A program made the position numbers and the translations under genes. A stretch of DNA of 64,000 nt, from positions 1,118-65,117 of the forward strand of contig JAFASQ010000019.1 in the NCBI GenBank assembly GCA_019244395.1, in the 5' to 3' direction. This DNA is from Solirubrobacterales bacterium. GTDB lineage: Bacteria; Actinomycetota; Thermoleophilia; Solirubrobacterales; Solirubrobacteraceae. Below, one piece after another: positions 5,278 through 58,080 of the stretch (within the stretch, counting starts at the first letter, position 1; every line of letters starts with the position of its first letter). Below the pieces are notes generated by a model that searched no databases, was not told the origin of the DNA, and saw nothing but the letters and a program-made list of their open reading frames with translations.

Positions 5278-5913
5278 GTGCGAAACGTGCGCAAATCGAG
5301 AACAATCCGGACCGCGGCGGCGAACCTCAACGGCACCGGCGACAGCCGGCTCGCGGGCCTGATGGGGCAGCGGATCCGCCGGTTGCGGACCCAGGCGGGG
5401 AAGACGCTGCGAGCGCAGGCGCGGGAGATCGGAATCGCCGCCTCCTCTCTCTCGGCACTCGAGAACGGGCAGGGTGGCGTCTCGCTTAAACGCCTTCAGC
5501 TGGTCGCCGAGCACTTTGGGCTTCACATCACCGAGCTGCTCGGGGAGCCCGCCGTGGCCGCGAGAGTCGATGGCGTCGAGATCATTCGCAACTGCGCCGC
5601 GACGGTGCCTGGGGTGCAACGGGGGACCGGCGTGCTCTACCAGCTGCTCGGCAGCGGACGTGACCACATCATCCAACCGTACCTCCTGTCGTTCGACCCC
5701 GAGGGCGGTTACGACCGCGACATGATCGGTCATCCCGGTGAGGAGATCGCCTACGTCCTGCACGGCCGGGTCGAGCTGCTGATCGAGGACGAGTGTCACG
5801 CGCTCACCCAGGGCGACCTGATCCGCTTCCGGGCCGATCGGCCGCACGCGTTCCGCAATGCTTCGAGTGTCGGCGTGGCGGCAGTGATCGGGGCGGCGAC
5901 GCCGCCATGGTAG
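5278..5913 (+). CDS. XRE-family HTH transcriptional regulator with C-terminal cupin domain
   Basis: MGQRIRRLR...SSLSALENG HTH_3; cupin HPGEEIAYVLHGRVEL...GDLIRF...PHAFRN. Confidence 0.9.
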   Translation: MRNVRKSRTIRTAAANLNGTGDSRLAGLMGQRIRRLRTQAGKTLRAQAREIGIAASSLSALENGQGGVSLKRLQLVAEHFGLHITELLGEPAVAARVDGVEIIRNCAATVPGVQRGTGVLYQLLGSGRDHIIQPYLLSFDPEGGYDRDMIGHPGEEIAYVLHGRVELLIEDECHALTQGDLIRFRADRPHAFRNASSVGVAAVIGAATPPW

Positions 5914-7052
5914 GCACGGTCGACCTGCACGAGATCGTGACGCCCGTGCTGCTGGTCGACCGGCCCCGCCTGCTAAAGAACATCGAGGACATGGCCGAGC
6001 GGGCGCGCCGGCTGGGCGTCGTCCTGCGGCCCCACGCCAAGACCCACAAGTCGCCCGCGATCGCAGCCCTTCAGCGCGAGCAGGGCGCCGTGGGACTGAC
6101 CGTGGCCACGGTGGCCGAAGCCGAGGCGTTCGCCGCCGAGGGCATCGACGACCTCGTGCTCACGACCCCGCCGGTGGGGGAGTGGCGCCTTGATCGCGTG
6201 GTCGCGCTGGCGAGACGAGTGCGGCTGCGCGTGACCGTCGACGACGTCGACGTCCTAGCTGCGCTCGACCGCGCCTGCCGGCGCGGCGGGGCCGACATCG
6301 GCTACCTGTGGGAACTCGACAGTGGGGTGGGCCGTTTCGGTACACCGCCCGGCGCCGCCACCGCTGAGTTGATCGCAGGAGCGGCCGACCGTACGAGCAA
6401 CGCCTCGTTCGACGGACTGTTGACCTTCGGCGGGCACTCCTACGCCGCCACCGACTGGCAGGGGATCGTCGCCGCCGCCCGCGACGAGCGGGAAGCCATC
6501 GCGCAGACCGCGACCGCCCTGCGCGAGCGCGGTATCGAACCACGCCTAACCAGCGTGGGGAGTACCCCCACCGCGCACGCCATGGAACGGGATGACGCGA
6601 TCACCGAGATCCGTCCCGGCAACTACGTGTTCTACGACGCGACGCAGGTGGCGCTGGGAGTCGTGCCGGTCGAACGCTGCGCGCTGTCCGTTCTGGCGAC
6701 GGTGACCTCGCGACCGGCGCCGGACCGCCTGATCCTCGATTCCGGATCGAAGGCGCTCGCGGCCGAGCGGCTGACCGTGCTGAGCTCCGGATTCGGGCTG
6801 ATCGAGGGTCATCCCGAGCTGAGGGTCGAGCGCCTATACGAGGAGCAGGCGATCGTCCATGGCGACGAACCGTGCGACATTCCCGTTGGCGCGCGGCTTC
6901 GCGTCATCCCCAACCATGCCTGCGCCGCGGCGAACCTTCACTCGCGGATGCTGGCCGTGGAAGAGGAGGCCGTGGTCGAGGAATGGTCGGTGGCGGCCCG
7001 TGAGTGGAGAGAGATCGAGGCCGAGAGGAGACCGGCATGGAGCACCAGATAG
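5907..7052 (+). CDS. Fold-type III PLP enzyme, D-threonine aldolase/D-serine dehydratase (DSD1) family
   Basis: TPVLLVD, LRPHAKTHKS (PLP lysine), SVGSTPT, EIRPGNYVFYD, EEQ, VIPNHAC; start ATG 5907 overlaps the upstream stop. Confidence 0.9.
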   Translation: MVGTVDLHEIVTPVLLVDRPRLLKNIEDMAERARRLGVVLRPHAKTHKSPAIAALQREQGAVGLTVATVAEAEAFAAEGIDDLVLTTPPVGEWRLDRVVALARRVRLRVTVDDVDVLAALDRACRRGGADIGYLWELDSGVGRFGTPPGAATAELIAGAADRTSNASFDGLLTFGGHSYAATDWQGIVAAARDEREAIAQTATALRERGIEPRLTSVGSTPTAHAMERDDAITEIRPGNYVFYDATQVALGVVPVERCALSVLATVTSRPAPDRLILDSGSKALAAERLTVLSSGFGLIEGHPELRVERLYEEQAIVHGDEPCDIPVGARLRVIPNHACAAANLHSRMLAVEEEAVVEEWSVAAREWREIEAERRPAWSTR

Positions 7053-51079: not shown

Positions 51080-52309
51080 TCAGCCGCGATGCGCGGCCGT
51101 GGCGGCGTTGGCGCCGGCAATCTCGCGGATGAACTCGCCGGCGGCGGCGAACGCGTCGGCAGCCTCGGGCAGGAACGACCAGAACAGCTGGAAGGCATGC
51201 GCCTGCACCGGATAGAGCTCCAACCGGGCGGCCACGCCATGTTCCTGCGCGCGGATCGCGAGCGCTTCGGCGTCGGCCAGGCGGGCGTCACCGGTGGCGG
51301 CCTGAATCAGCATCGGCGGCAGGCCGGCGAGGTCGGCGCCGAGCGGGTCGACGATCGGATCGTCGGCTGGATGACCGTTCAGATAGGCCCGGGTGCAGCG
51401 GGTCGCCTCAGCATCGGTCGCCATCGGAGCAGCGGCCTCGCCGGCGTCCGTCGGGCGGGCCATCTCGTGCAGCCCGAGGTCGAGCCAGGGGCAGAGCAGG
51501 ACGGCGGCGCCCGGATACGGCGCGCACTGGTCTTTCAAGGTCAGCAGCAGCGACATCGCGAGCCCTCCGCCCGCGGAGTCACCGGCCACGACCACGCGGT
51601 CGGCTGGGACGCCCTGCTCGAGCAACCACCGATACGCGCTCACCGCATCCTGCACGGCGGCGGGGAACGGATGCTCGGGGGCGAGACGGTAATCCGGAAC
51701 GAGTACCGCGGTCTGGGCCGCGGCGGCCAGGGCGCCGGCGTGTGGTTGATAGCCGAACGCCGACCCCACCACGTACCCGCCGCCGTGCAGATAGAGCACG
51801 GTGGGCTCCGGGTGATCCGGGGGCGCCGCGATCAGCGACGGCACGCCGCCGGCGGTGACCGGCCGGACGCTCGTACCAGCCGGTGGGCTGAACCCCGCCT
51901 GAAGCCGCTCGAAGGCAGCCCGCGCGTCGTGCAGGCCCTCTTCCTGGGCGACGAGTCCGGACAGCGGCTCGAGCAGCCGGGCGACGCGCCCGAGCAGTTC
52001 ACCACCGACCGCCAGCGTCGCGGACACCGCCTCGTCGACATCGCGGAGGAGCTTGCGGGCTCGATCCAGCAGCGCCTCGTCGGCCAGTGTCAGCTCGACG
52101 CGGTGCGTCGATCGCCGCAGCAGCTCACACCCGACGAGTTGCTCGAGCGAGCGGATCTGCCGGCTGAGCGCCGGTTGGGAAACGTATAGCCGGTCGGCGG
52201 CACGGCCGAAGTTGAGCTCCTCGGCGACCGCCACGAACGCCCGCAGGTGGCGTAGCTCTATGCCATCGGGCGCCTGCGGGAAAGGGAGCAGATGTCCGCG
52301 TTCCGGCAC
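51080..52309 (-). CDS. LysR-type HTH fused to an HSL-family alpha/beta hydrolase
   Basis: IELRHLRAFVAVAEELNFGRAADRLYVSQPALSRQIRSLE; then YLHGGGY, DYRLAPEHPFPAA, GDSAG, D and AHAF; start GTG 52309. Confidence 0.88.
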   Translation of the reverse strand: MPERGHLLPFPQAPDGIELRHLRAFVAVAEELNFGRAADRLYVSQPALSRQIRSLEQLVGCELLRRSTHRVELTLADEALLDRARKLLRDVDEAVSATLAVGGELLGRVARLLEPLSGLVAQEEGLHDARAAFERLQAGFSPPAGTSVRPVTAGGVPSLIAAPPDHPEPTVLYLHGGGYVVGSAFGYQPHAGALAAAAQTAVLVPDYRLAPEHPFPAAVQDAVSAYRWLLEQGVPADRVVVAGDSAGGGLAMSLLLTLKDQCAPYPGAAVLLCPWLDLGLHEMARPTDAGEAAAPMATDAEATRCTRAYLNGHPADDPIVDPLGADLAGLPPMLIQAATGDARLADAEALAIRAQEHGVAARLELYPVQAHAFQLFWSFLPEAADAFAAAGEFIREIAGANAATAAHRG

Positions 52310-52345
52310 TCGGCAAGTATGGCTCGGGCGCGCCCAGTTGGTGAT

Positions 52346-52378
52346 GCCGATCCTGCACGACCGTCGTGCAGGATCGGC
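52346..52378. promoter_or_regulatory. Perfect 33-bp palindrome in the divergent intergenic region
   Basis: GCCGATCCTGCACGAC-C-GTCGTGCAGGATCGGC followed on + by CTTTCCCTTTCT. Confidence 0.75.
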
Positions 52379-52416
52379 CTTTCCCTTTCTCGCGCGTGGC
52401 TGGAACTCTGGCCCAC

Positions 52417-53007
52417 ATGTCATTGGCCGCGGATCTGAAATTGCGCTTCGGCCCCGTGCGGCTCCCGGCGCGCGTCTACCTGCCCGCGCCGCGGGCGCTG
52501 GCCGCCGGCCGGCCGACGCTCGTCGTCTGGCTCGCGGGCAGGAAGGGCGGCGATGTGCTGTGCCGCGATTTGAGCGCGGCCGCTGCGGCCGTGGTGCTCG
52601 AGCTTCCAAGTTCCGGTTTCCCGATTGGCGGCGGGCACGAGCTGGCGGCACTCGCGTGGGCGGCCGAGCACGCCTCGGAGTTCGGAGTTGGCGGCGGCTC
52701 GCTGGTGGTCGGAGGTCAGCTCGCCGGCGCAGCGCGCGCGGCACGACTCGCGCTCGATGCACGCGACAGCGGCTGGCCGGCGCTGCGCAGGCAGGTGCTC
52801 GTCCGGCCGACGTTCGCCGGTCCCGGCCTTGTGCCCACTGGAGTCGCTGGCATCGCCCCCGCGACAATCGTCACCAACGGCCTGCGAGGAGACGACGGGA
52901 GCCGTTTCGCGGCTACCCTGCGGGGCGCAGGTGTCGCCGTGCAGGAGCTGGTGAGCGACGCTCGTCGGGCGCTGCCCGTCCACGAGCTGGCCGCGGCGCT
53001 GCGATGA
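52417..53007 (+). CDS. Degenerate alpha/beta hydrolase (probable pseudo-enzyme)
   Basis: HSL-like scaffold (PARVYLP, PTLVVW, LCRDLS, ALAWAAEHASEFG, ALDARDSGWP, FAATLRGAGV) but GQLAG in place of GDSAG and no HGGG. Confidence 0.7.
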   Translation: MSLAADLKLRFGPVRLPARVYLPAPRALAAGRPTLVVWLAGRKGGDVLCRDLSAAAAAVVLELPSSGFPIGGGHELAALAWAAEHASEFGVGGGSLVVGGQLAGAARAARLALDARDSGWPALRRQVLVRPTFAGPGLVPTGVAGIAPATIVTNGLRGDDGSRFAATLRGAGVAVQELVSDARRALPVHELAAALR

Positions 53008-53627
53008 GTACCGGCTCGGCCACGATGAGAGCGGGTCCGATCCAGGACGATCTCGAGCGCCACCGCCTCGCGCTGACGCGGCACTGCACGCGCATGCTCG
53101 CCTCGACGTGCGACGCCGAAGACGCGGTTCAGGAGACCCTGCTGCGCGCCTGGCGGAGTCGTCGTCAGTACGAAGGGCGATCCTCGCTGCACTCGTGGCT
53201 GTACCGAATCGCAACCAACGTGTGCATCGACATGCTGAGCGATCGCTCGCGGCGCGCGGTGCCGGTCGAACCCGCGCAGGTCGAGGGCGCCCCGATCGAG
53301 GCGGGCGCCGACACCGATCCGGCGGCGCGCACACTGAGGCGTGAGACGTTCGGGCTCGCGCTGGTCGCGGCGATCGAGCGGCTGCCGGCGCGCCAGCGGG
53401 CCGTGCTGCTTCTGCGCGAGGCCCTGGACTGGAGGGCGAGCGAGATCGCGGAGCTGTTCGGGACCAGCGTCCCCGCGGTGAACAGCGCCCTGCAACGCGC
53501 GCGGGCGAGGCTCGACGGCGGTGGCGCCGAGGCGGACCTCACGCCAACGCCGGTCATGAAGGACCAGCACCGGCAGCTGCTGGCCTCGTACCTGGCTGGG
53601 TTCGAGGCCGGCAACTTTGCGCGGTAA
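53004..53627 (+). CDS. ECF sigma factor, SigG-like, lacking the SnoaL extension
   Basis: DAEDAVQETLLRAWR, SWLYRIATNVCID, LPARQRAVLLLRE.L.W.ASEIA, AVNSALQRARA; stops at YLAGFEAGNFAR; ATGA overlap with upstream gene. Confidence 0.88.
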   Translation: MSTGSATMRAGPIQDDLERHRLALTRHCTRMLASTCDAEDAVQETLLRAWRSRRQYEGRSSLHSWLYRIATNVCIDMLSDRSRRAVPVEPAQVEGAPIEAGADTDPAARTLRRETFGLALVAAIERLPARQRAVLLLREALDWRASEIAELFGTSVPAVNSALQRARARLDGGGAEADLTPTPVMKDQHRQLLASYLAGFEAGNFAR

Positions 53628-53664
53628 CGATGAGATCCGGGACCTCTCGGGGTCTGAACGGGAA

Positions 53665-54105
53665 ATGCGCACATGGGAGACAGAGACCACGGTTCCGGGA
53701 CCGCCGGCGGCAGTGCTCGAACTGCTCACGGAGCCGGACTCGATCTCGCGCTGGGCGCCGGTTCCGTTCGAGGTCGTGTCGCTGCGCGATCGCCGGCTGT
53801 GCACGGGCAGCCGCGCCCAGGTCGCGGGCCGGCTCGCTGGCCGCGCCGTCGAATTCGATGTCACCGTATTCGAGGCATCCGGAGAGCGGTTGGCGTTGGC
53901 GGCCGACGGTCCGATCTCGATCGGCGTCCAGTATGTCCTGCGCCAGGTCCCCGGCGGGAGCGACGTAAAAGCCTCGGTTTCGGTCGTCGGCCGGGGCCTG
54001 TTCGGCCGGGTCCTGGCCAGTGCCACCGAGGCGCTCCTCGCCGCCGGCGCGCTTCGCGTCTCGCTCGAGCGCCTTGGGCGCCTGCTGCGGCCTGCCGTGG
54101 CCTAG
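53665..54105 (+). CDS. SRPBCC/START-like family protein
   Basis: V...LTEPDSISRWAP N-terminal helix, beta-rich core, C-terminal helix SLERLGRLL. Confidence 0.65.
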   Translation: MRTWETETTVPGPPAAVLELLTEPDSISRWAPVPFEVVSLRDRRLCTGSRAQVAGRLAGRAVEFDVTVFEASGERLALAADGPISIGVQYVLRQVPGGSDVKASVSVVGRGLFGRVLASATEALLAAGALRVSLERLGRLLRPAVA

Positions 54106-54111
54106 CGTCAG

Positions 54112-55497
54112 CTAGCCGATGGTGGTTGATGATCGGGCGGCGAGGACGTGCTCGAGGGCGGCTAGCACCTCCTGGTCAAGCCTGCGGTTCGCGTCCGGTC
54201 GCAGGATGCTCAGCACCTCGTCGGGGTCGAGCGCGCGCCGATACGGGCGGTCCGCGCTGAGCGCCTCGGCCACGTCGGCGACGGCAAGGATCCGCGACGG
54301 CTGGTCGAGGTGCTCGCCGGTGAGTCCGCGGTAGTAGCCGCTGCCGTCCAAGCGTTCATGATGCGCGGCGGCGATCCGGGCCATGTCTGCGAATGCGCCC
54401 ACCCGCGCGAGGATCTCCAGCGACCATTGTGGATGGCGCCGAACCGCCTCCCACTCCCCCGGATCGAGCGGACCTGGCTTGTCCAGGATCCGGCTGGACA
54501 CGCCCAGCTTGCCGATGTCGTGCAGCAGCGCAGCGCGGTGCAGGGTCGCGCGGACACGGTCGTCGATTCCCGCCAACGCGGCCAGGGCGTCGGCGAGCGC
54601 GGCCACTCTCTCGGAGTGCTGCGCGGTGTACGGCGATTTGGCGTCGACGATCGAGGCAAACGCGTGCGCCACTCGATCCAGCCGGTCGCTGTCGGCGACA
54701 AGAACACGGGCAGGCGGCTCTAGTGGAGTCACCTCGGGGAAATCCAGGGACTGCCAGAAGTCCGAATCCTCCTCGAGGGCGACCAATGCGTCGACCAGGG
54801 TGGGGTCGAACCAGGTCCGTCGTCGTCGGCGCGCGATCTCGCAAGCGGCATCCGGCCCGCCGTGCTGCCAGAACACCTCCGCGGTCTGGGCCAGGCACAG
54901 CACTCGGCCCGCCAGCGAGATGTCGTCTCCTGAGATTCCGGTGGGGTAACCCCCGCCGTCCCAGTGCTCATCGACGTCCAGGATCGCGCGAGCCGTGACC
55001 TCGTCCAGACCGATGGCGCGCGCCACTGCGGCGCCCCGCTCGCAGCGCAGTTCGATCAATGAGCGGGCGCCGGACCGCCCAGACCTGAGCACGGCACCCA
55101 CGTGGTGTCCTCTCGCCAGCAACGACCCGCCGGTTCCGGCGGTACGGAGCACGTGCAGCAGGGCCTGCGACGTGCTGCTGGTATCAGTCAACCGCCGCGA
55201 GCTCTTGACCATCGCATCGTCCGCGCCGAACAGCGCCGCGACCCGGGCCGCGTTCGAGGAGCAGCCCGCGTCTTTGAGCAGCAGGGCATAGAACAGCGAT
55301 GAGCGCGAGGCGTCGTCCAGACCGAGAGCGCCCGCGAGGCGCATGCCGATCAGGCAGCTGCGCTCAGCATGGCCCCGCGGCTGACCCTCGGTCATGTCGA
55401 GGGCATACGAAAGCCCTGAGAGCACCTCCGAGAGAGGAAGCTCGGCAACTGCGTCGATCGGTTGATCGGTGGCCTGGCGTGGCACCCGCATTAGCAT
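54112..55497 (-). CDS. Tandem HD-GYP domain protein (cyclic dinucleotide phosphodiesterase-like)
   Basis: Degenerate first domain (LLKDAG, EHWDGGGYP), intact second domain (HSERVA, LLHDIGKLGV...LDKPGPL, HHERLDGSGY, AVADVAEAL...RPYR). Confidence 0.9.
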   Translation of the reverse strand: MLMRVPRQATDQPIDAVAELPLSEVLSGLSYALDMTEGQPRGHAERSCLIGMRLAGALGLDDASRSSLFYALLLKDAGCSSNAARVAALFGADDAMVKSSRRLTDTSSTSQALLHVLRTAGTGGSLLARGHHVGAVLRSGRSGARSLIELRCERGAAVARAIGLDEVTARAILDVDEHWDGGGYPTGISGDDISLAGRVLCLAQTAEVFWQHGGPDAACEIARRRRRTWFDPTLVDALVALEEDSDFWQSLDFPEVTPLEPPARVLVADSDRLDRVAHAFASIVDAKSPYTAQHSERVAALADALAALAGIDDRVRATLHRAALLHDIGKLGVSSRILDKPGPLDPGEWEAVRRHPQWSLEILARVGAFADMARIAAAHHERLDGSGYYRGLTGEHLDQPSRILAVADVAEALSADRPYRRALDPDEVLSILRPDANRRLDQEVLAALEHVLAARSSTTIG

Positions 55498-55660: not shown

Positions 55661-57295
55661 TTACCGACGGCTAGGCGGCGGCGGGCGCCGTGGCAGCAAC
55701 GCGCGGAAGTCGCGGGCGCGCAGGCAGCCCAGCCAGATCCCGACGCCGCGGCTCGACTCGTCGGCGAGCCGAAGCGCCGCGTAGGCGCCGGGATCGAGCG
55801 CCGGGCGATCCGCCAGCCAGTCGGCGAGCACCATGGCTGACACAAGCGCGCCGATCCTGCTGGCGAGCTTGCGGCGGCGCCGGTGACCGGTCAGGGTCAG
55901 CGCCGCTATAGCGAACGGCGCCCATGGTCCGGCCAGCGCTCGCGCCAGTTCGCGCCCCTCGCGCAGCGTAACGTCCGCGCTGAGCTTGGCCGCCCACGGG
56001 CCGGCGGCGGGCAACCGGCGACCGATTGTGCGCCGGAGGCGGGACGCGCGGGCGGCGGCGAGGATGACCACGGCCGGTGGCATGCCAGCGAGTGCCGCGG
56101 CCCACGCGAGCGCCGCCGCCGGGGAGAGGAACAGCACCGGGACCCGCTCGGGATGGCGGCGGAGGAGTGGGGCGACCGACTCGTTGTAGGCCACCCGCCG
56201 GCGGTACCAAGCCAGCGGTTGTACGCGATCCTCGTGCGCGACCGTCACCTGCGGGTCGTAGCGAAGCTGCCATCCCGCGTCGTGCAGGCGCCACACCAGG
56301 TCGACGTCTTCGCCGAGCGACAGGTCCTCGTCAAAGCCGGCGCCAAGTGCCTCACGCCGAGCCACCATGGCCGCGCTCGGCACGTACCAGACCGGGCTGT
56401 AGGGTCGCACCAGCGACGGTCGCGGGCCCATGTCGAGCGCCGAACGGCAGCGCTCGTAGGCGGCGATCGGGCCGGACGCGGGCGCGGCGGTGACGATCCG
56501 CGGGGCCGCGAGCGCCACCGCCGGATCATCGAGGTGATCGAGCAGGCGGCCGGGGAAGTTCGCCGGCGGGACGCAGTCGGCATCGAGGAAGGCCACCAGT
56601 GGCGTCTCGGCCACCGAGAGCCCTGTGTTGCGGGCGGCAGAGGGACCACGGTTTTCGCGGTGGCGCACGTACCGCGCGCCGAACCGCTCCGCCACGGCAA
56701 CGATCGGCGCCGGATCGGGCGAGCCGTCGTCGACCACGACGAGCGGCCACTTGCCGGCGAGCGGGGCAAGGCACGCGCTCAGCCGCCGAGGATCCGCGTA
56801 GACGGGCACCACGATCGTCAGCGCGCCGGCGGCGTGCGGCCGCGCCGGCGGATCGGGATCGGCCAGGCCGGCGTTGAGCAGGCGGCGAGCGAGGAGTCGC
56901 TCCTCCTGATCCTCGCGCTCCTCCTGATCCTCGCGCTCGTCCCGCTCCTCGCGCTCGTCCCGATCCTCGCGCTCGTCCCGCTCCTCGCGCTCGTCCCGAT
57001 CCCCGCGCTCGTCCCGCTCCCCGCGCTCGTCCCCATTCCCGCGCTCGCCCCGATTCCCGCGCGCCTTCTGATCCTCCGCGTGCGCCCAACTCACTGGCTG
57101 GCCAGCCAGCCAGCCACGGACAAGGGAGGCGGCGCGGGCGGACAAGGTCAGGATCCGCAGGGGCGAGCCCCCCACCAGGATCTCGCCATCCCGGATCACC
57201 CGCGTGCCGGCGGCTGGCCGGAGGCGCCATCCCGCGGGGACGGGAATGGGCATCCTGGCGGCAGTCGCGCCCGCGTCGGCCGGGGCAATGATCAT
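55661..57295 (-). CDS. mftF: Mycofactocin glycosyltransferase
   Basis: GGSPLRILTLS, LARRLLNAGLADP, VVVDDGS, GPSAARNTG, AFLDADC, SALDMG, YVPSAA, GEDVDLVWRL; TGATG coupling to the upstream SDR. Confidence 0.9.
   Translation of the reverse strand: MIIAPADAGATAARMPIPVPAGWRLRPAAGTRVIRDGEILVGGSPLRILTLSARAASLVRGWLAGQPVSWAHAEDQKARGNRGERGNGDERGERDERGDRDEREERDEREDRDEREERDEREDQEEREDQEERLLARRLLNAGLADPDPPARPHAAGALTIVVPVYADPRRLSACLAPLAGKWPLVVVDDGSPDPAPIVAVAERFGARYVRHRENRGPSAARNTGLSVAETPLVAFLDADCVPPANFPGRLLDHLDDPAVALAAPRIVTAAPASGPIAAYERCRSALDMGPRPSLVRPYSPVWYVPSAAMVARREALGAGFDEDLSLGEDVDLVWRLHDAGWQLRYDPQVTVAHEDRVQPLAWYRRRVAYNESVAPLLRRHPERVPVLFLSPAAALAWAAALAGMPPAVVILAAARASRLRRTIGRRLPAAGPWAAKLSADVTLREGRELARALAGPWAPFAIAALTLTGHRRRRKLASRIGALVSAMVLADWLADRPALDPGAYAALRLADESSRGVGIWLGCLRARDFRALLPRRPPPPSRR
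56897..57062 (-). repeat. 18-bp in-frame tandem repeat (about nine units) encoding an Arg/Glu/Asp tract in MftF
   Basis: CCTCGCGCTCGTCCCGMT units; RGNRGE RGNGDE RGERDE RGDRDE REERDE REDRDE REERDE REDQEE REDQEE. Confidence 0.9.
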
Positions 57296-58080
57296 CAAGC
57301 GGTCAGTCCGCCGTCGACCGGCAGCACCGCGCCGGTCAGTGCCGAAGCCGCCGGACCGCACAGCCAGATCACCGCCTCGGCAATCTCGTGCGGCTCGATC
57401 AGCCGGCGTATCAGGTGCTGACTGGCGAACTCCTCCTCGCCGGTGAGATCGTAGACCTCGGCACTCGCCGCGAGCATGACCCCTCGCGTCGAACCCGGAC
57501 AGATCGCGTTGGCGGACACGCCCGTCCCGGCGAGGTCACCGGCCAGCGCGCGGACGTAGCCGACGGTGGCCGCCTTGGCCGCTGAGTAGGCGGCGAGCTG
57601 TGACATGGCCCGCAGCGCCGCCGCCGACGCAATCGCCACGAACCGTCCGCCACCCGCTTGCATCATCCCGGGGATCGTGGCCTCGGCGAGTCGCCGGGTG
57701 CCGTGCAGGTTGACGTTCATCAGGCTTGCCCAGGCGTCCTCGCTCGTCTCCCACCCGGCTCCTCCCGCGATCACGCCAGCGGCGGCCACCGCGGCGGCCG
57801 CGGTCCTTCGCTCCAGGGCGCGCGTGAGCGAGGCGACGAAGTCCGCGCTGCCGACGTCGGCCTGGAGCACCTCGACGCTCGCGGCGCCGGCCTCGGCACA
57901 TCGGGACGCGAGGGCGTCCAGATCCGCCGGCGCCGGCATCTCGTACGCGATCCCGGGCTGCGCCGCACACGCGTCGACCAGGAGCAATGACCAGCCTCGC
58001 GCGGCCAGTCCTGTAGAGACGGCGGCCCCGATGCCGCGCGCGGCACCGGTGACCACGGCCAGATCGGACTCGTCAGGCAT
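57295..58080 (-). CDS. Mycofactocin-associated SDR oxidoreductase
   Basis: VVTGAARGIG, insertion VDACAAQPGIAYEMPAPADL typical of mycofactocin-linked SDRs, YSAAK, NAICPGST, LPVDGG; lies inside the mft operon. Confidence 0.85.
   Translation of the reverse strand: MPDESDLAVVTGAARGIGAAVSTGLAARGWSLLLVDACAAQPGIAYEMPAPADLDALASRCAEAGAASVEVLQADVGSADFVASLTRALERRTAAAAVAAAGVIAGGAGWETSEDAWASLMNVNLHGTRRLAEATIPGMMQAGGGRFVAIASAAALRAMSQLAAYSAAKAATVGYVRALAGDLAGTGVSANAICPGSTRGVMLAASAEVYDLTGEEEFASQHLIRRLIEPHEIAEAVIWLCGPAASALTGAVLPVDGGLTA

Follow-up and report, generated by a model that had tools for sequence, protein, structure and literature searches.

The ECF56 sigma factors, to which SigG belongs, are a group of extracytoplasmic function (ECF) sigma factors that is widespread in Actinobacteria; their promoter and regulon are strikingly conserved, and their signal and purpose are still open (bioRxiv 10.1101/2020.01.30.927608; PMC8999054). 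The promoter, CGATGAGTT-N14-GGTC, is nearly invariant, Conexibacter included (Thompson et al., bioRxiv 10.1101/2020.01.30.927608), the regulons reported contain genes of the glyoxalase and dihydrofolate reductase type, and the proteins are marked by an MPP(F/Y/L) motif downstream of sigma4 (bioRxiv 10.1101/2020.01.30.927608). Truncation of an ECF56 factor after MPPY, which removes the NTF2 extension, raised its activity (Thompson et al., bioRxiv 10.1101/2020.01.30.927608), and proteins of the SVEN_4562(delta237-323) type outdo the full-length sigma and drive CGATGAGTT-N14-GGTC promoters (bioRxiv 10.1101/2020.01.30.927608). ECF32 HrpL, ECF39 SigE/CseBC, ECF203-TetR, and ECF234-two-component are systems in which the sigma is under transcriptional, not anti-sigma, control (PMC8999054). 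Here we describe a locus on a 64,000-nucleotide stretch of DNA from a Solirubrobacterales bacterium (contig JAFASQ010000019.1; called the window, with positions counted from its first letter) in which the gene of a short ECF56/SigG-like sigma follows that of a catalytically dead mini-esterase. The pair is divergent from the gene of a LysR-type DNA-binding head fused to an esterase (the LysR-esterase).

We propose that the locus is an ECF sigma under transcription-level control, put together from a LysR-esterase, a pseudo-esterase, and a naturally SnoaL-less ECF56 sigma. The reading towards which we lean, with some reserve, is a transcriptional relay in which the LysR-esterase would set transcription of the short sigma and the sigma would fire ECF56 promoters.

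Results

A Recurring Module of LysR-Esterase, Dead Esterase, and Short Sigma

The three genes of the module and the gene that follows them are listed here; the local base composition is about 70% G+C.

51080..52309, minus strand: fusion of a LysR-type helix-turn-helix (HTH) head and a hormone-sensitive lipase (HSL)-type esterase, 409 aa; GTG start at 52309; HTH_1 and Abhydrolase_3
52417..53007, plus strand: dead mini-esterase, 196 aa; ATG at 52417; partial Abhydrolase_3
53004..53627, plus strand: ECF56/SigG-like sigma, 207 aa; Sigma70_r2 and r4_2
53665..54105, plus strand: SRPBCC (Polyketide_cyc2) protein, 146 aa; PF10604 match

The triplet of LysR-esterase, divergent dead esterase, and short sigma occurs in the window and at 14 additional loci (L111, L112, L114, L123-L128, L130, L131, L132, L134, and L135), about 15 in all. 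The sources are metagenomes and genomes belonging to the same genus and order, and sigma identities range over 46-77%. Because the gene order recurs in some 15 independent loci, we judge the arrangement to be far beyond chance. The dead-esterase and sigma genes, which share an ATGA at 53004-53007 in the window, overlap by at least 4 nt in every triplet locus where the junction was inspected. The gene after the sigma, on the other hand, varies (a TPR protein, a MocR-type regulator, an acetyltransferase, an NmrA-like protein, a protein with no Pfam match, or genes on the opposite strand). The module is patchy in its distribution: of 24 genomes sampled from the genus, 5 have it, and an even sample of 300 other genomes of the order gave 4 with the LysR-esterase, all four in another family. 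When the genome contigs were scanned with the short-sigma alignment, the matches listed were only long SnoaL sigmas, none with the module.

The LysR-esterase is present at every locus for which the flank was available, and the cassette occurs without the sigma as well. At least seven sigma-less loci (L120-L122, L133, L154, L155, and L156) carry a dead esterase. The next gene is a DHA2-type MFS gene in L120-L122 and L155, an ATGA-coupled RibD_C gene in L133, and a glyoxalase gene in L156; two of the four MFS-linked dead esterases are truncated. On one metagenome contig (L154, 5001-6032) an in-frame fusion joins the dead esterase to an AHSA1 domain of the SRPBCC superfamily, giving a protein of 343 aa divergent from the LysR-esterase. 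This cargo (MFS, RibD_C, glyoxalase, AHSA1) belongs largely to ECF56-regulon or motif-linked families. The converse arrangement is found in L129, which has no dead esterase: the LysR-esterase faces the short sigma across a whole intergenic region, and the sigma ATG occupies the usual start position of the dead esterase. Since the dead esterase is kept at LysR-esterase loci that have no sigma, it tracks the LysR-esterase and not the sigma.

The L154 fusion, known from one contig only, suggests that the two folds may be functionally linked. L126, from a genome of the same genus, has another ECF sigma gene (5741-6355), with 38% identity to the query, immediately after that of the short sigma.

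An earlier note on this DNA, made from the sequence alone, had described a hydrolase fold without nucleophile (GQLAG), oxyanion loop, and His, ATGA-coupled to the sigma, with an SRPBCC gene downstream. Alignment and domain matching bear out the first of these, and the overlap at 53004-53007 and the SRPBCC gene at 53665-54105 are where the note had seen them. It had also called for a synteny check of all four genes. The LysR-esterase, dead esterase, and sigma stay together in about 15 loci, whereas the SRPBCC gene joins them in the window only. The suggestion that the three divergently arranged genes form one circuit gains from this synteny and from an operator and promoter architecture shared by 19 loci, which is presented below.

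The Short Sigma Lacks the SnoaL_2 Domain

The sigma has the Sigma70_r2 and r4_2 domains (Pfam), and among NCBIfam models PRK08241 (E 1e-66) and TIGR02960 fit it best, with a match that ends at model position 234 of 343. The scores fall under the cut-offs (224.9 versus 240 for PRK08241 and 210.6 versus 264.75 for TIGR02960) because the C-terminal third of the sigma is absent, and a Pfam search gave no match to PF12680 (SnoaL_2). The assignment to ECF56 was made through these NCBIfam models and a tree. Alignment with SnoaL_2-bearing relatives places the end of the sigma some 15 residues into the SnoaL_2 extension, after its first helix (LLASYLAGFEAGNFAR-stop), and reveals that about 15 residues of the linker between sigma2 and sigma4 are absent too. 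The truncation seen in the earlier note thus holds; the exact point that it gave, the start of the SnoaL domain, does not, as the stop lies one helix (about 15 residues) inside. The long relatives carry an MPPY motif (SMPPYELW or SMPPYDLW), before which all members of the short clade end, and all short sigmas that we inspected stop just past the first SnoaL_2 helix. The DNA-recognition segments WLYRIATNVC and VNSALQRAR are common to the short sigma and its long relatives.

Short sigmas of this kind are numerous. Sigmas of 200-216 aa with 55-79% identity to the one in the window fill more than 80 clusters, and below them follow the SnoaL_2-bearing relatives, with identities of about 50-55%. A maximum-likelihood tree groups 32 short sigmas in one clade (support 95/87) nested among the long SnoaL_2 ones; the sigmas of L123 and L124, which have long branches, and those of the trio P0086/P0089/P0093 lie outside this main clade or are not resolved. 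A single origin of all short sigmas appears likely from these data. Pairwise omega (dN/dS by NG86, which is only approximate at so high a G+C content) is 0.21-0.43.

The closest solved sigma structure is 7QH5 chain A (E 5e-32). An AlphaFold2 model (pTM 0.42) predicts the C-terminal helix with pLDDT <50 and gives it no confident placement on sigma4; the ECF review literature links the retained N-terminal helix of the extension to sigma4 by direct-coupling analysis.

The LysR-Esterase Has an Intact Catalytic Triad

The LysR-esterase matches HTH_1 (PF00126, E 2e-20) and Abhydrolase_3 (E 1e-53) in Pfam; the LysR_substrate domain (PF03466) was not found in that search, and Abhydrolase_3 takes its place. 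For residues 17-101 the best solved match is the DNA-binding domain of BenM. In the esterase part, HGG, GDS-G, Asp341, and His371 are invariant among 18 aligned homologs. The family counts over 120 clusters with at least 71% identity, HTH_1 and Abhydrolase_3 being present in all of those listed, and the pairwise omega of 0.12-0.17 is the lowest of the three module genes. Members bear no annotation beyond 'alpha/beta hydrolase' or 'epsilon-lactone hydrolase', and a literature search for the fusion gave no relevant description, which is weak evidence of absence; the LysR-HTH::esterase regulators are apparently an undescribed family. We propose the LysR-esterase as the master regulator of the cassette.

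Two near-identical contigs from different samples, L113 and L114, differ in that the LysR-esterase and the dead esterase of L113 are frameshifted, with the sigma intact. The frameshifts represent either real decay of the regulator or an assembly error.

Two Putative Divergent Promoters Share a Candidate Operator

The anatomy of the intergenic region (between the starts at 52309 and 52417) was derived from an alignment of 19 loci.

52307-52309, minus strand: GTG start of the LysR-esterase; CAC or CAT on the plus strand, invariant in the 19 loci
52316..52321, minus strand: CATACT, putative -10 element of the LysR-esterase promoter
52346..52378, no strand: perfect 16-1-16 dyad GCCGATCCTGCACGAC-C-GTCGTGCAGGATCGGC with 100% complementary arms, candidate operator for the LysR-esterase
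52378..52389, plus strand: CCTTTCCCTTTC box, nearly invariant, where the -35 element of the operon promoter would lie; possible activation site
52404..52409, plus strand: -10-like AACTCT, with A-N3-T at 52405-52409, 7 nt before the ATG at 52417

The dyad is centered at 52362, at distances of 53 and 55 nt from the starts of the divergent genes. Its consensus, ATGCCGATCGTGCA-N9-TGCGCGATCGG, is kept across the 19 loci, and the pattern occurs only once in the window, compared with 0.14 occurrences expected by chance. The dyad lies where a LysR box would be expected, but this 16-1-16 palindrome, with TGCAC-N7-GTGCA at its core, is not a strict T-N11-A. The CCTTTCCCTTTC box, for which the 19-locus alignment also gives the conserved form CTTTCCCTTT, is kept in all of these loci, including those with another downstream gene. 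On the side of the LysR-esterase, AGTAT (plus strand) is kept in 19/19 loci at 6-7 nt from the start codon; on the operon side, the A-N3-T columns are kept 6-9 nt upstream of the first start in the loci inspected by eye, L129 included. Because the putative -10 elements sit 6-9 nt from the start codons, both divergent transcripts look leaderless. The layout would be that of a divergent, activator-dependent promoter pair with an autoregulated regulator.

The aligned intergenic regions were also searched for an ECF56 motif upstream of the dead esterase-sigma operon, and none was found. The short sigma does not seem to be autoregulated, since its own operon has no such motif upstream.

A second inverted repeat, GCGGGAAAGGGA / TCCCTTTCTCGC (52276-52287 and 52382-52393; 12 nt, 92% complementary), pairs the conserved CTTTCCC box with the codons of LPFP, an invariant N-terminal peptide in the LysR-esterase. 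The repeat may be an additional binding site or a coincidence of the coding sequence.

The SRPBCC Gene Has an ECF56-Type Promoter of Its Own

A further promoter lies past the sigma gene.

53628..53654, plus strand: ECF56-type promoter CGATGAGAT-N14-GGTC, which runs from 1 nt past the sigma stop to 10 nt short of the SRPBCC ATG

It occupies the 37-nt gap between the sigma and SRPBCC genes and is the only match in the 64-kb window at one mismatch or fewer, compared with 0.06 expected by chance. The SRPBCC gene, for which the ATG at 53665 is a likelier start than the TTG at 53617, encodes a Polyketide_cyc2 protein (PF10604, E 8e-8, 33.2 bits versus a cut-off of 27.4) with no anti-sigma match in Pfam. 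Genome-wide there are 19 matches to GATGAGWT-N14-15-GTC versus 2 for a reversed control, and about 10 of the matches sit 8-35 nt before the starts of regulon-type genes. The predicted regulon, with CGATGAGTT-N14-GGTC 8-35 nt before the starts on contigs C12, C50, C66, C96, C212, C233, C291, and C536, consists of two VOC/glyoxalases, RibD_C, a DHA2 MFS protein, a MoaD/ThiS-like protein, and several unknowns. Related loci carry the motif in other places: a perfect copy lies 1.3 kb downstream of the short sigma in L130, before an Abhydrolase_1 gene; another lies 2.5 kb downstream in L123; and in L120 and L121 it precedes the MFS gene, within the 3' end of the dead esterase.

We looked for an SRPBCC gene next to the sigma in all module loci, about 16 of them sigma-bearing, and found it only in the window; one copy lies 3.4 kb away in L120. 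The SRPBCC paralogs of related genomes stand alone, one of them (L137) with its own ECF56-like promoter and about seven with a ATGTCACA box, which is located some 35-45 nt before the start (L141, L142, L144, L145, L146, L148, and L149; same genus and the window's own genome). We take this box to resemble the ECF41 -35 element, TGTCACA. The SRPBCC family may be a shared target class of SnoaL-type ECF sigmas. In the window, the SRPBCC gene, with an ECF56-type promoter of its own and no conserved place beside the sigma, is probably an ECF56-regulon target rather than a regulator.

The Dead Mini-Esterase Is a Conserved Family under Purifying Selection

The sole Pfam match of the dead esterase is to Abhydrolase_3 (E 5e-9), over profile positions 18-109 of 210 only, and no anti-sigma domain was found in the search. 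Where the HSL family has GDSAG the protein has GQLAG, and WLAGRKGG stands in place of HGGG. At the catalytic Asp motif (T-x-G-x-R-x-D-D-G) it reads T-N-G-L-R-G-D-D-G, with Gly at the Asp position, and in the alignment its C-terminus precedes the His motif. The same holds for the family: 32 aligned and 12 short distant members have GQLAG or GGARA as the Ser motif, Gly at the Asp position, no His, and no HGG, and the canonical G-x-S-x-G is absent from 12/12 of the short distant members inspected.

AlphaFold2 predicts an alpha/beta-hydrolase core (pLDDT 70.8, pTM 0.73) of the HSL type, without the cap regions and with residues 131-155 disordered. The top Foldseek matches are all HSL esterases (Est8 4YPV, EstDL136 6AAE, EST2 1EVQ, and PestE 2YH2), with TM-scores, normalised on the dead esterase, of 0.70-0.78. 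The dead esterase shares the alpha/beta core with these enzymes and differs from them in lacking the triad residues, the oxyanion loop, and both cap regions. We considered whether it might be a recent duplicate of the neighboring esterase domain and rejected this, BLASTP giving only 30% identity over 152 aa (E 0.03). A non-catalytic receptor with the HSL fold is known in plants, GID1. The dead esterase is like GID1 in having the HSL fold, a disabled triad, and a place in a gene-regulation pathway, but at 196 aa it is so small that a lidded ligand pocket like that of GID1 is doubtful.

The family comprises about 90 clusters at 90% identity, mostly of exactly 196 aa, and a profile search of a 50% identity library (1.84 billion representatives) gave 70 representatives at E<=1e-30. 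Triad-less mini-esterases are apparently an undescribed large family of at least 70 clusters at 50% identity. Sizes run through 332, 239, 196, and about 160 aa. We regard this as a reduction series because the full-length P0372 (Abhydrolase_3, E 3e-52) already has altered Ser and oxyanion sites, GEGAGG and RAGG. Among 32 dead esterases, 17 columns are invariant and many more nearly so, W81, H85, W120-P121, Q126, and D159 included. Omega is 0.35-0.52 in five sigma-linked pairs, with bootstrap upper bounds of 0.52-0.77 and at most 1 of 200 replicates reaching 1. These values are the highest of the three module genes, and omega rises to 0.66 for the sigma-linked L124-L126 and to 0.73 for the MFS-linked genes.

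Genes Next to the Module

A convergent gene lies past the SRPBCC gene, outside the module.

54112-55497, minus strand: HD_5 protein

Further on, a 566-aa open reading frame (55661-57361, minus strand) has a long Asp/Glu/Arg repeat run (DERGERDERGDRDEREERDEREDRDEREERDEREDQEEREDQEE) that separates its N-terminal part from the remainder.

Discussion

A Proposed Relay from LysR-Esterase to ECF56 Promoters

The data presented here allow us to outline how the locus may work. The LysR-esterase would bind the conserved dyad midway between the two divergent leaderless promoters and control both its own gene and the dead esterase-sigma operon. The sigma has lost the autoinhibitory SnoaL_2/NTF2 domain together with the linker segment that this domain contacts. 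Because of this double loss its activity, presumably constitutive, would be set mainly by the amount made. It would direct RNA polymerase to CGATGAGTT-N14-GGTC promoters, that of the SRPBCC gene among them, and the further ECF56 promoters of the genome would drive glyoxalase/VOC, RibD_C, MFS, and similar genes. At the sister loci the cassette would bypass the sigma and drive regulon-type genes directly. The dead esterase could then be viewed as a generic first gene of operons controlled by the LysR-esterase. Its most likely role is to modulate or feed back on the LysR-esterase, which we favor because the dead esterase is always linked to that protein; it might pair with the esterase domain or hold a ligand without turnover. 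A function as a dedicated anti-sigma is less likely.

Several points weigh against the relay. We have inferred the transcription starts, the operator, and the specificity of the sigma from sequence. The dyad is longer than the classical T-N11-A box of LysR-type transcriptional regulators (LTTRs), and a LysR head deprived of its effector and oligomerisation domain may behave unlike an LTTR. The SRPBCC promoter has one mismatch (A for T at position 8) and could equally serve the closest full-length ECF56-like paralog of this genome (contig C552), or possibly two more divergent SnoaL-bearing paralogs. According to the review literature an ECF41 factor without the entire extension is inactive. A sigma cut as early as this one, some 18 residues ahead of the MPPY point of the laboratory truncation, might need a partner, which could be the dead esterase, and the helix that it retains was modeled with pLDDT <50.

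Alternative Explanations

A rival account, built on the proposal of the earlier note, is that the dead esterase is a ligand-sensing anti-sigma or co-activator which acts in trans and replaces SnoaL_2 by binding the sigma directly. The overlap of the two genes at every inspected locus that has both favors their co-production, and the inactivity of ECF41-type sigmas stripped of the whole extension would give such a partner a purpose; moreover, the ECF56 factor SigG1 uses a separate protein partner, RsfG (review literature). Truncation of two of the four MFS-linked dead esterases, at an omega of 0.73, fits relaxed constraint where the sigma is absent, although this argument is weakened by the similarly high 0.66 of the sigma-linked L124-L126. 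On the other hand, the dead esterase persists as a sizeable open reading frame at seven or more loci that have no short sigma, in L129 the sigma follows the same operator and the dead esterase is missing, and no similarity to any anti-sigma domain was seen in Pfam. These observations weaken the proposal, which we now regard as unlikely. We give similarly low weight to the opposite idea, that the dead esterase has no function as a protein and is a shrinking relic kept for its leaderless start and translational coupling. The size series of 332, 239, 196, about 160, and 0 aa over the loci, the highest omega of the three genes, the disordered segment at residues 131-155, and the clean loss in L129 would all be understandable in this way. 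A relic, however, would hardly be expected to keep omega clearly below 1 in five pairs (upper bounds 0.52-0.77), 17 invariant columns among 32 sequences, a core fold predicted with reasonable confidence (pTM 0.73), and a 196-aa length in most of about 90 clusters.

The SRPBCC protein had also been suggested as part of the control mechanism, that is, as a co-transcribed anti-sigma or ligand-dependent activator of the sigma. SRPBCC domains bind hydrophobic ligands, the gene lies on the same strand as the sigma across only 37 nt, and L154 joins a dead esterase to an AHSA1-type SRPBCC domain. This adjacency is nonetheless restricted to the window among about 16 sigma-bearing loci, the gap is filled by an ECF56-type promoter belonging to the SRPBCC gene itself, the paralogs stand alone elsewhere (one with an ECF56-like promoter, about seven with the ATGTCACA box), and the domain fused in L154 is of a different SRPBCC subfamily and known from one contig, so that we consider such a role very improbable. 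Least credible of all is simple decay, in which the sigma and the esterase would be pseudogenes produced by local truncation. Both proteins are indeed shorter than their families and fall below NCBIfam cut-offs. Nevertheless, there are over 80 clusters of short sigmas and about 90 of dead esterases with conserved lengths, the short sigmas are monophyletic, the DNA-binding residues of the sigma are invariant, and both genes are under purifying selection; these comparative data (clusters, clade, and omega) rule decay out. The dN/dS check that had been suggested for the dead hydrolase shows purifying selection, with omega <1 in 5/5 sigma-linked pairs, and no relative of the module was found with an intact hydrolase or a full SnoaL sigma, which the earlier note had named as the mark of decay.

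The relay remains our preferred account, and it admits a bolder version in which the esterase domain of the LysR-esterase and the dead esterase, as an enzyme/pseudoenzyme pair, sense an ester or lactone and, by way of a sigma that no longer has a sensor domain, take over the entire ECF56 regulon; in its strongest form the dead esterase docks on the sigma in place of the lost SnoaL_2. We think this rather doubtful. If true, the dead esterase docked on the sigma in trans would be a sigma modulator with the alpha/beta-hydrolase fold, to our knowledge not a known class.

Comparison with Known Systems

As a natural truncation experiment, the locus would have placed a freed ECF56 sigma under a regulator with an active-esterase sensor. 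Because the sensor is an esterase and the cassette drives families of the ECF56-regulon type, the cassette and its regulon cargo point to an ester- or lactone-like compound, or to detoxification stress, as the possible input. This offers a testable lead on the signal that the ECF56 regulon answers.

With the LysR-type regulators BenM and CbnR the LysR-esterase shares the N-terminal HTH_1 and linker helix, the divergent target operon, and a putative dyad operator that overlaps its own promoter. It differs in that the effector domain PF03466 has been swapped for an HSL esterase with an intact triad, and the dyad is 16-1-16 instead of T-N11-A.

The sigma matches the core of ECF56 factors such as M. 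tuberculosis SigG/Rv0182c, S. venezuelae SVEN_4562, S. tsukubaensis SigG1, and C. woesei Cwoe_2709. The ECF56-type NCBIfam models, however, are built on sigmas of about 320-340 aa with a C-terminal extension, whereas the window sigma, at 207 aa, has no SnoaL_2 beyond the first helix, no MPP(F/Y), and about 15 linker residues fewer. Its neighbors are the LysR-esterase and the dead esterase and not an RsfG-type partner, and it shows no autoregulation through an ECF56 promoter. A parallel is the engineered SVEN_4562(delta237-323), likewise an ECF56 core without the NTF2 domain (bioRxiv 10.1101/2020.01.30.927608). The natural short sigmas differ from it in being cut some 10-20 residues earlier, before MPPY, with the linker shortened too, and they appear to be an old selected lineage under a dedicated transcriptional regulator.

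As in ECF32, ECF39, ECF203, and ECF234, there is no recognisable anti-sigma at this locus, and a neighboring regulator gene is the likely point of control. In contrast to those systems, the regulator of this locus joins a LysR head to an active esterase, the sigma comes from a group normally controlled in cis by a fused domain, and a pseudoenzyme is co-translated with it.

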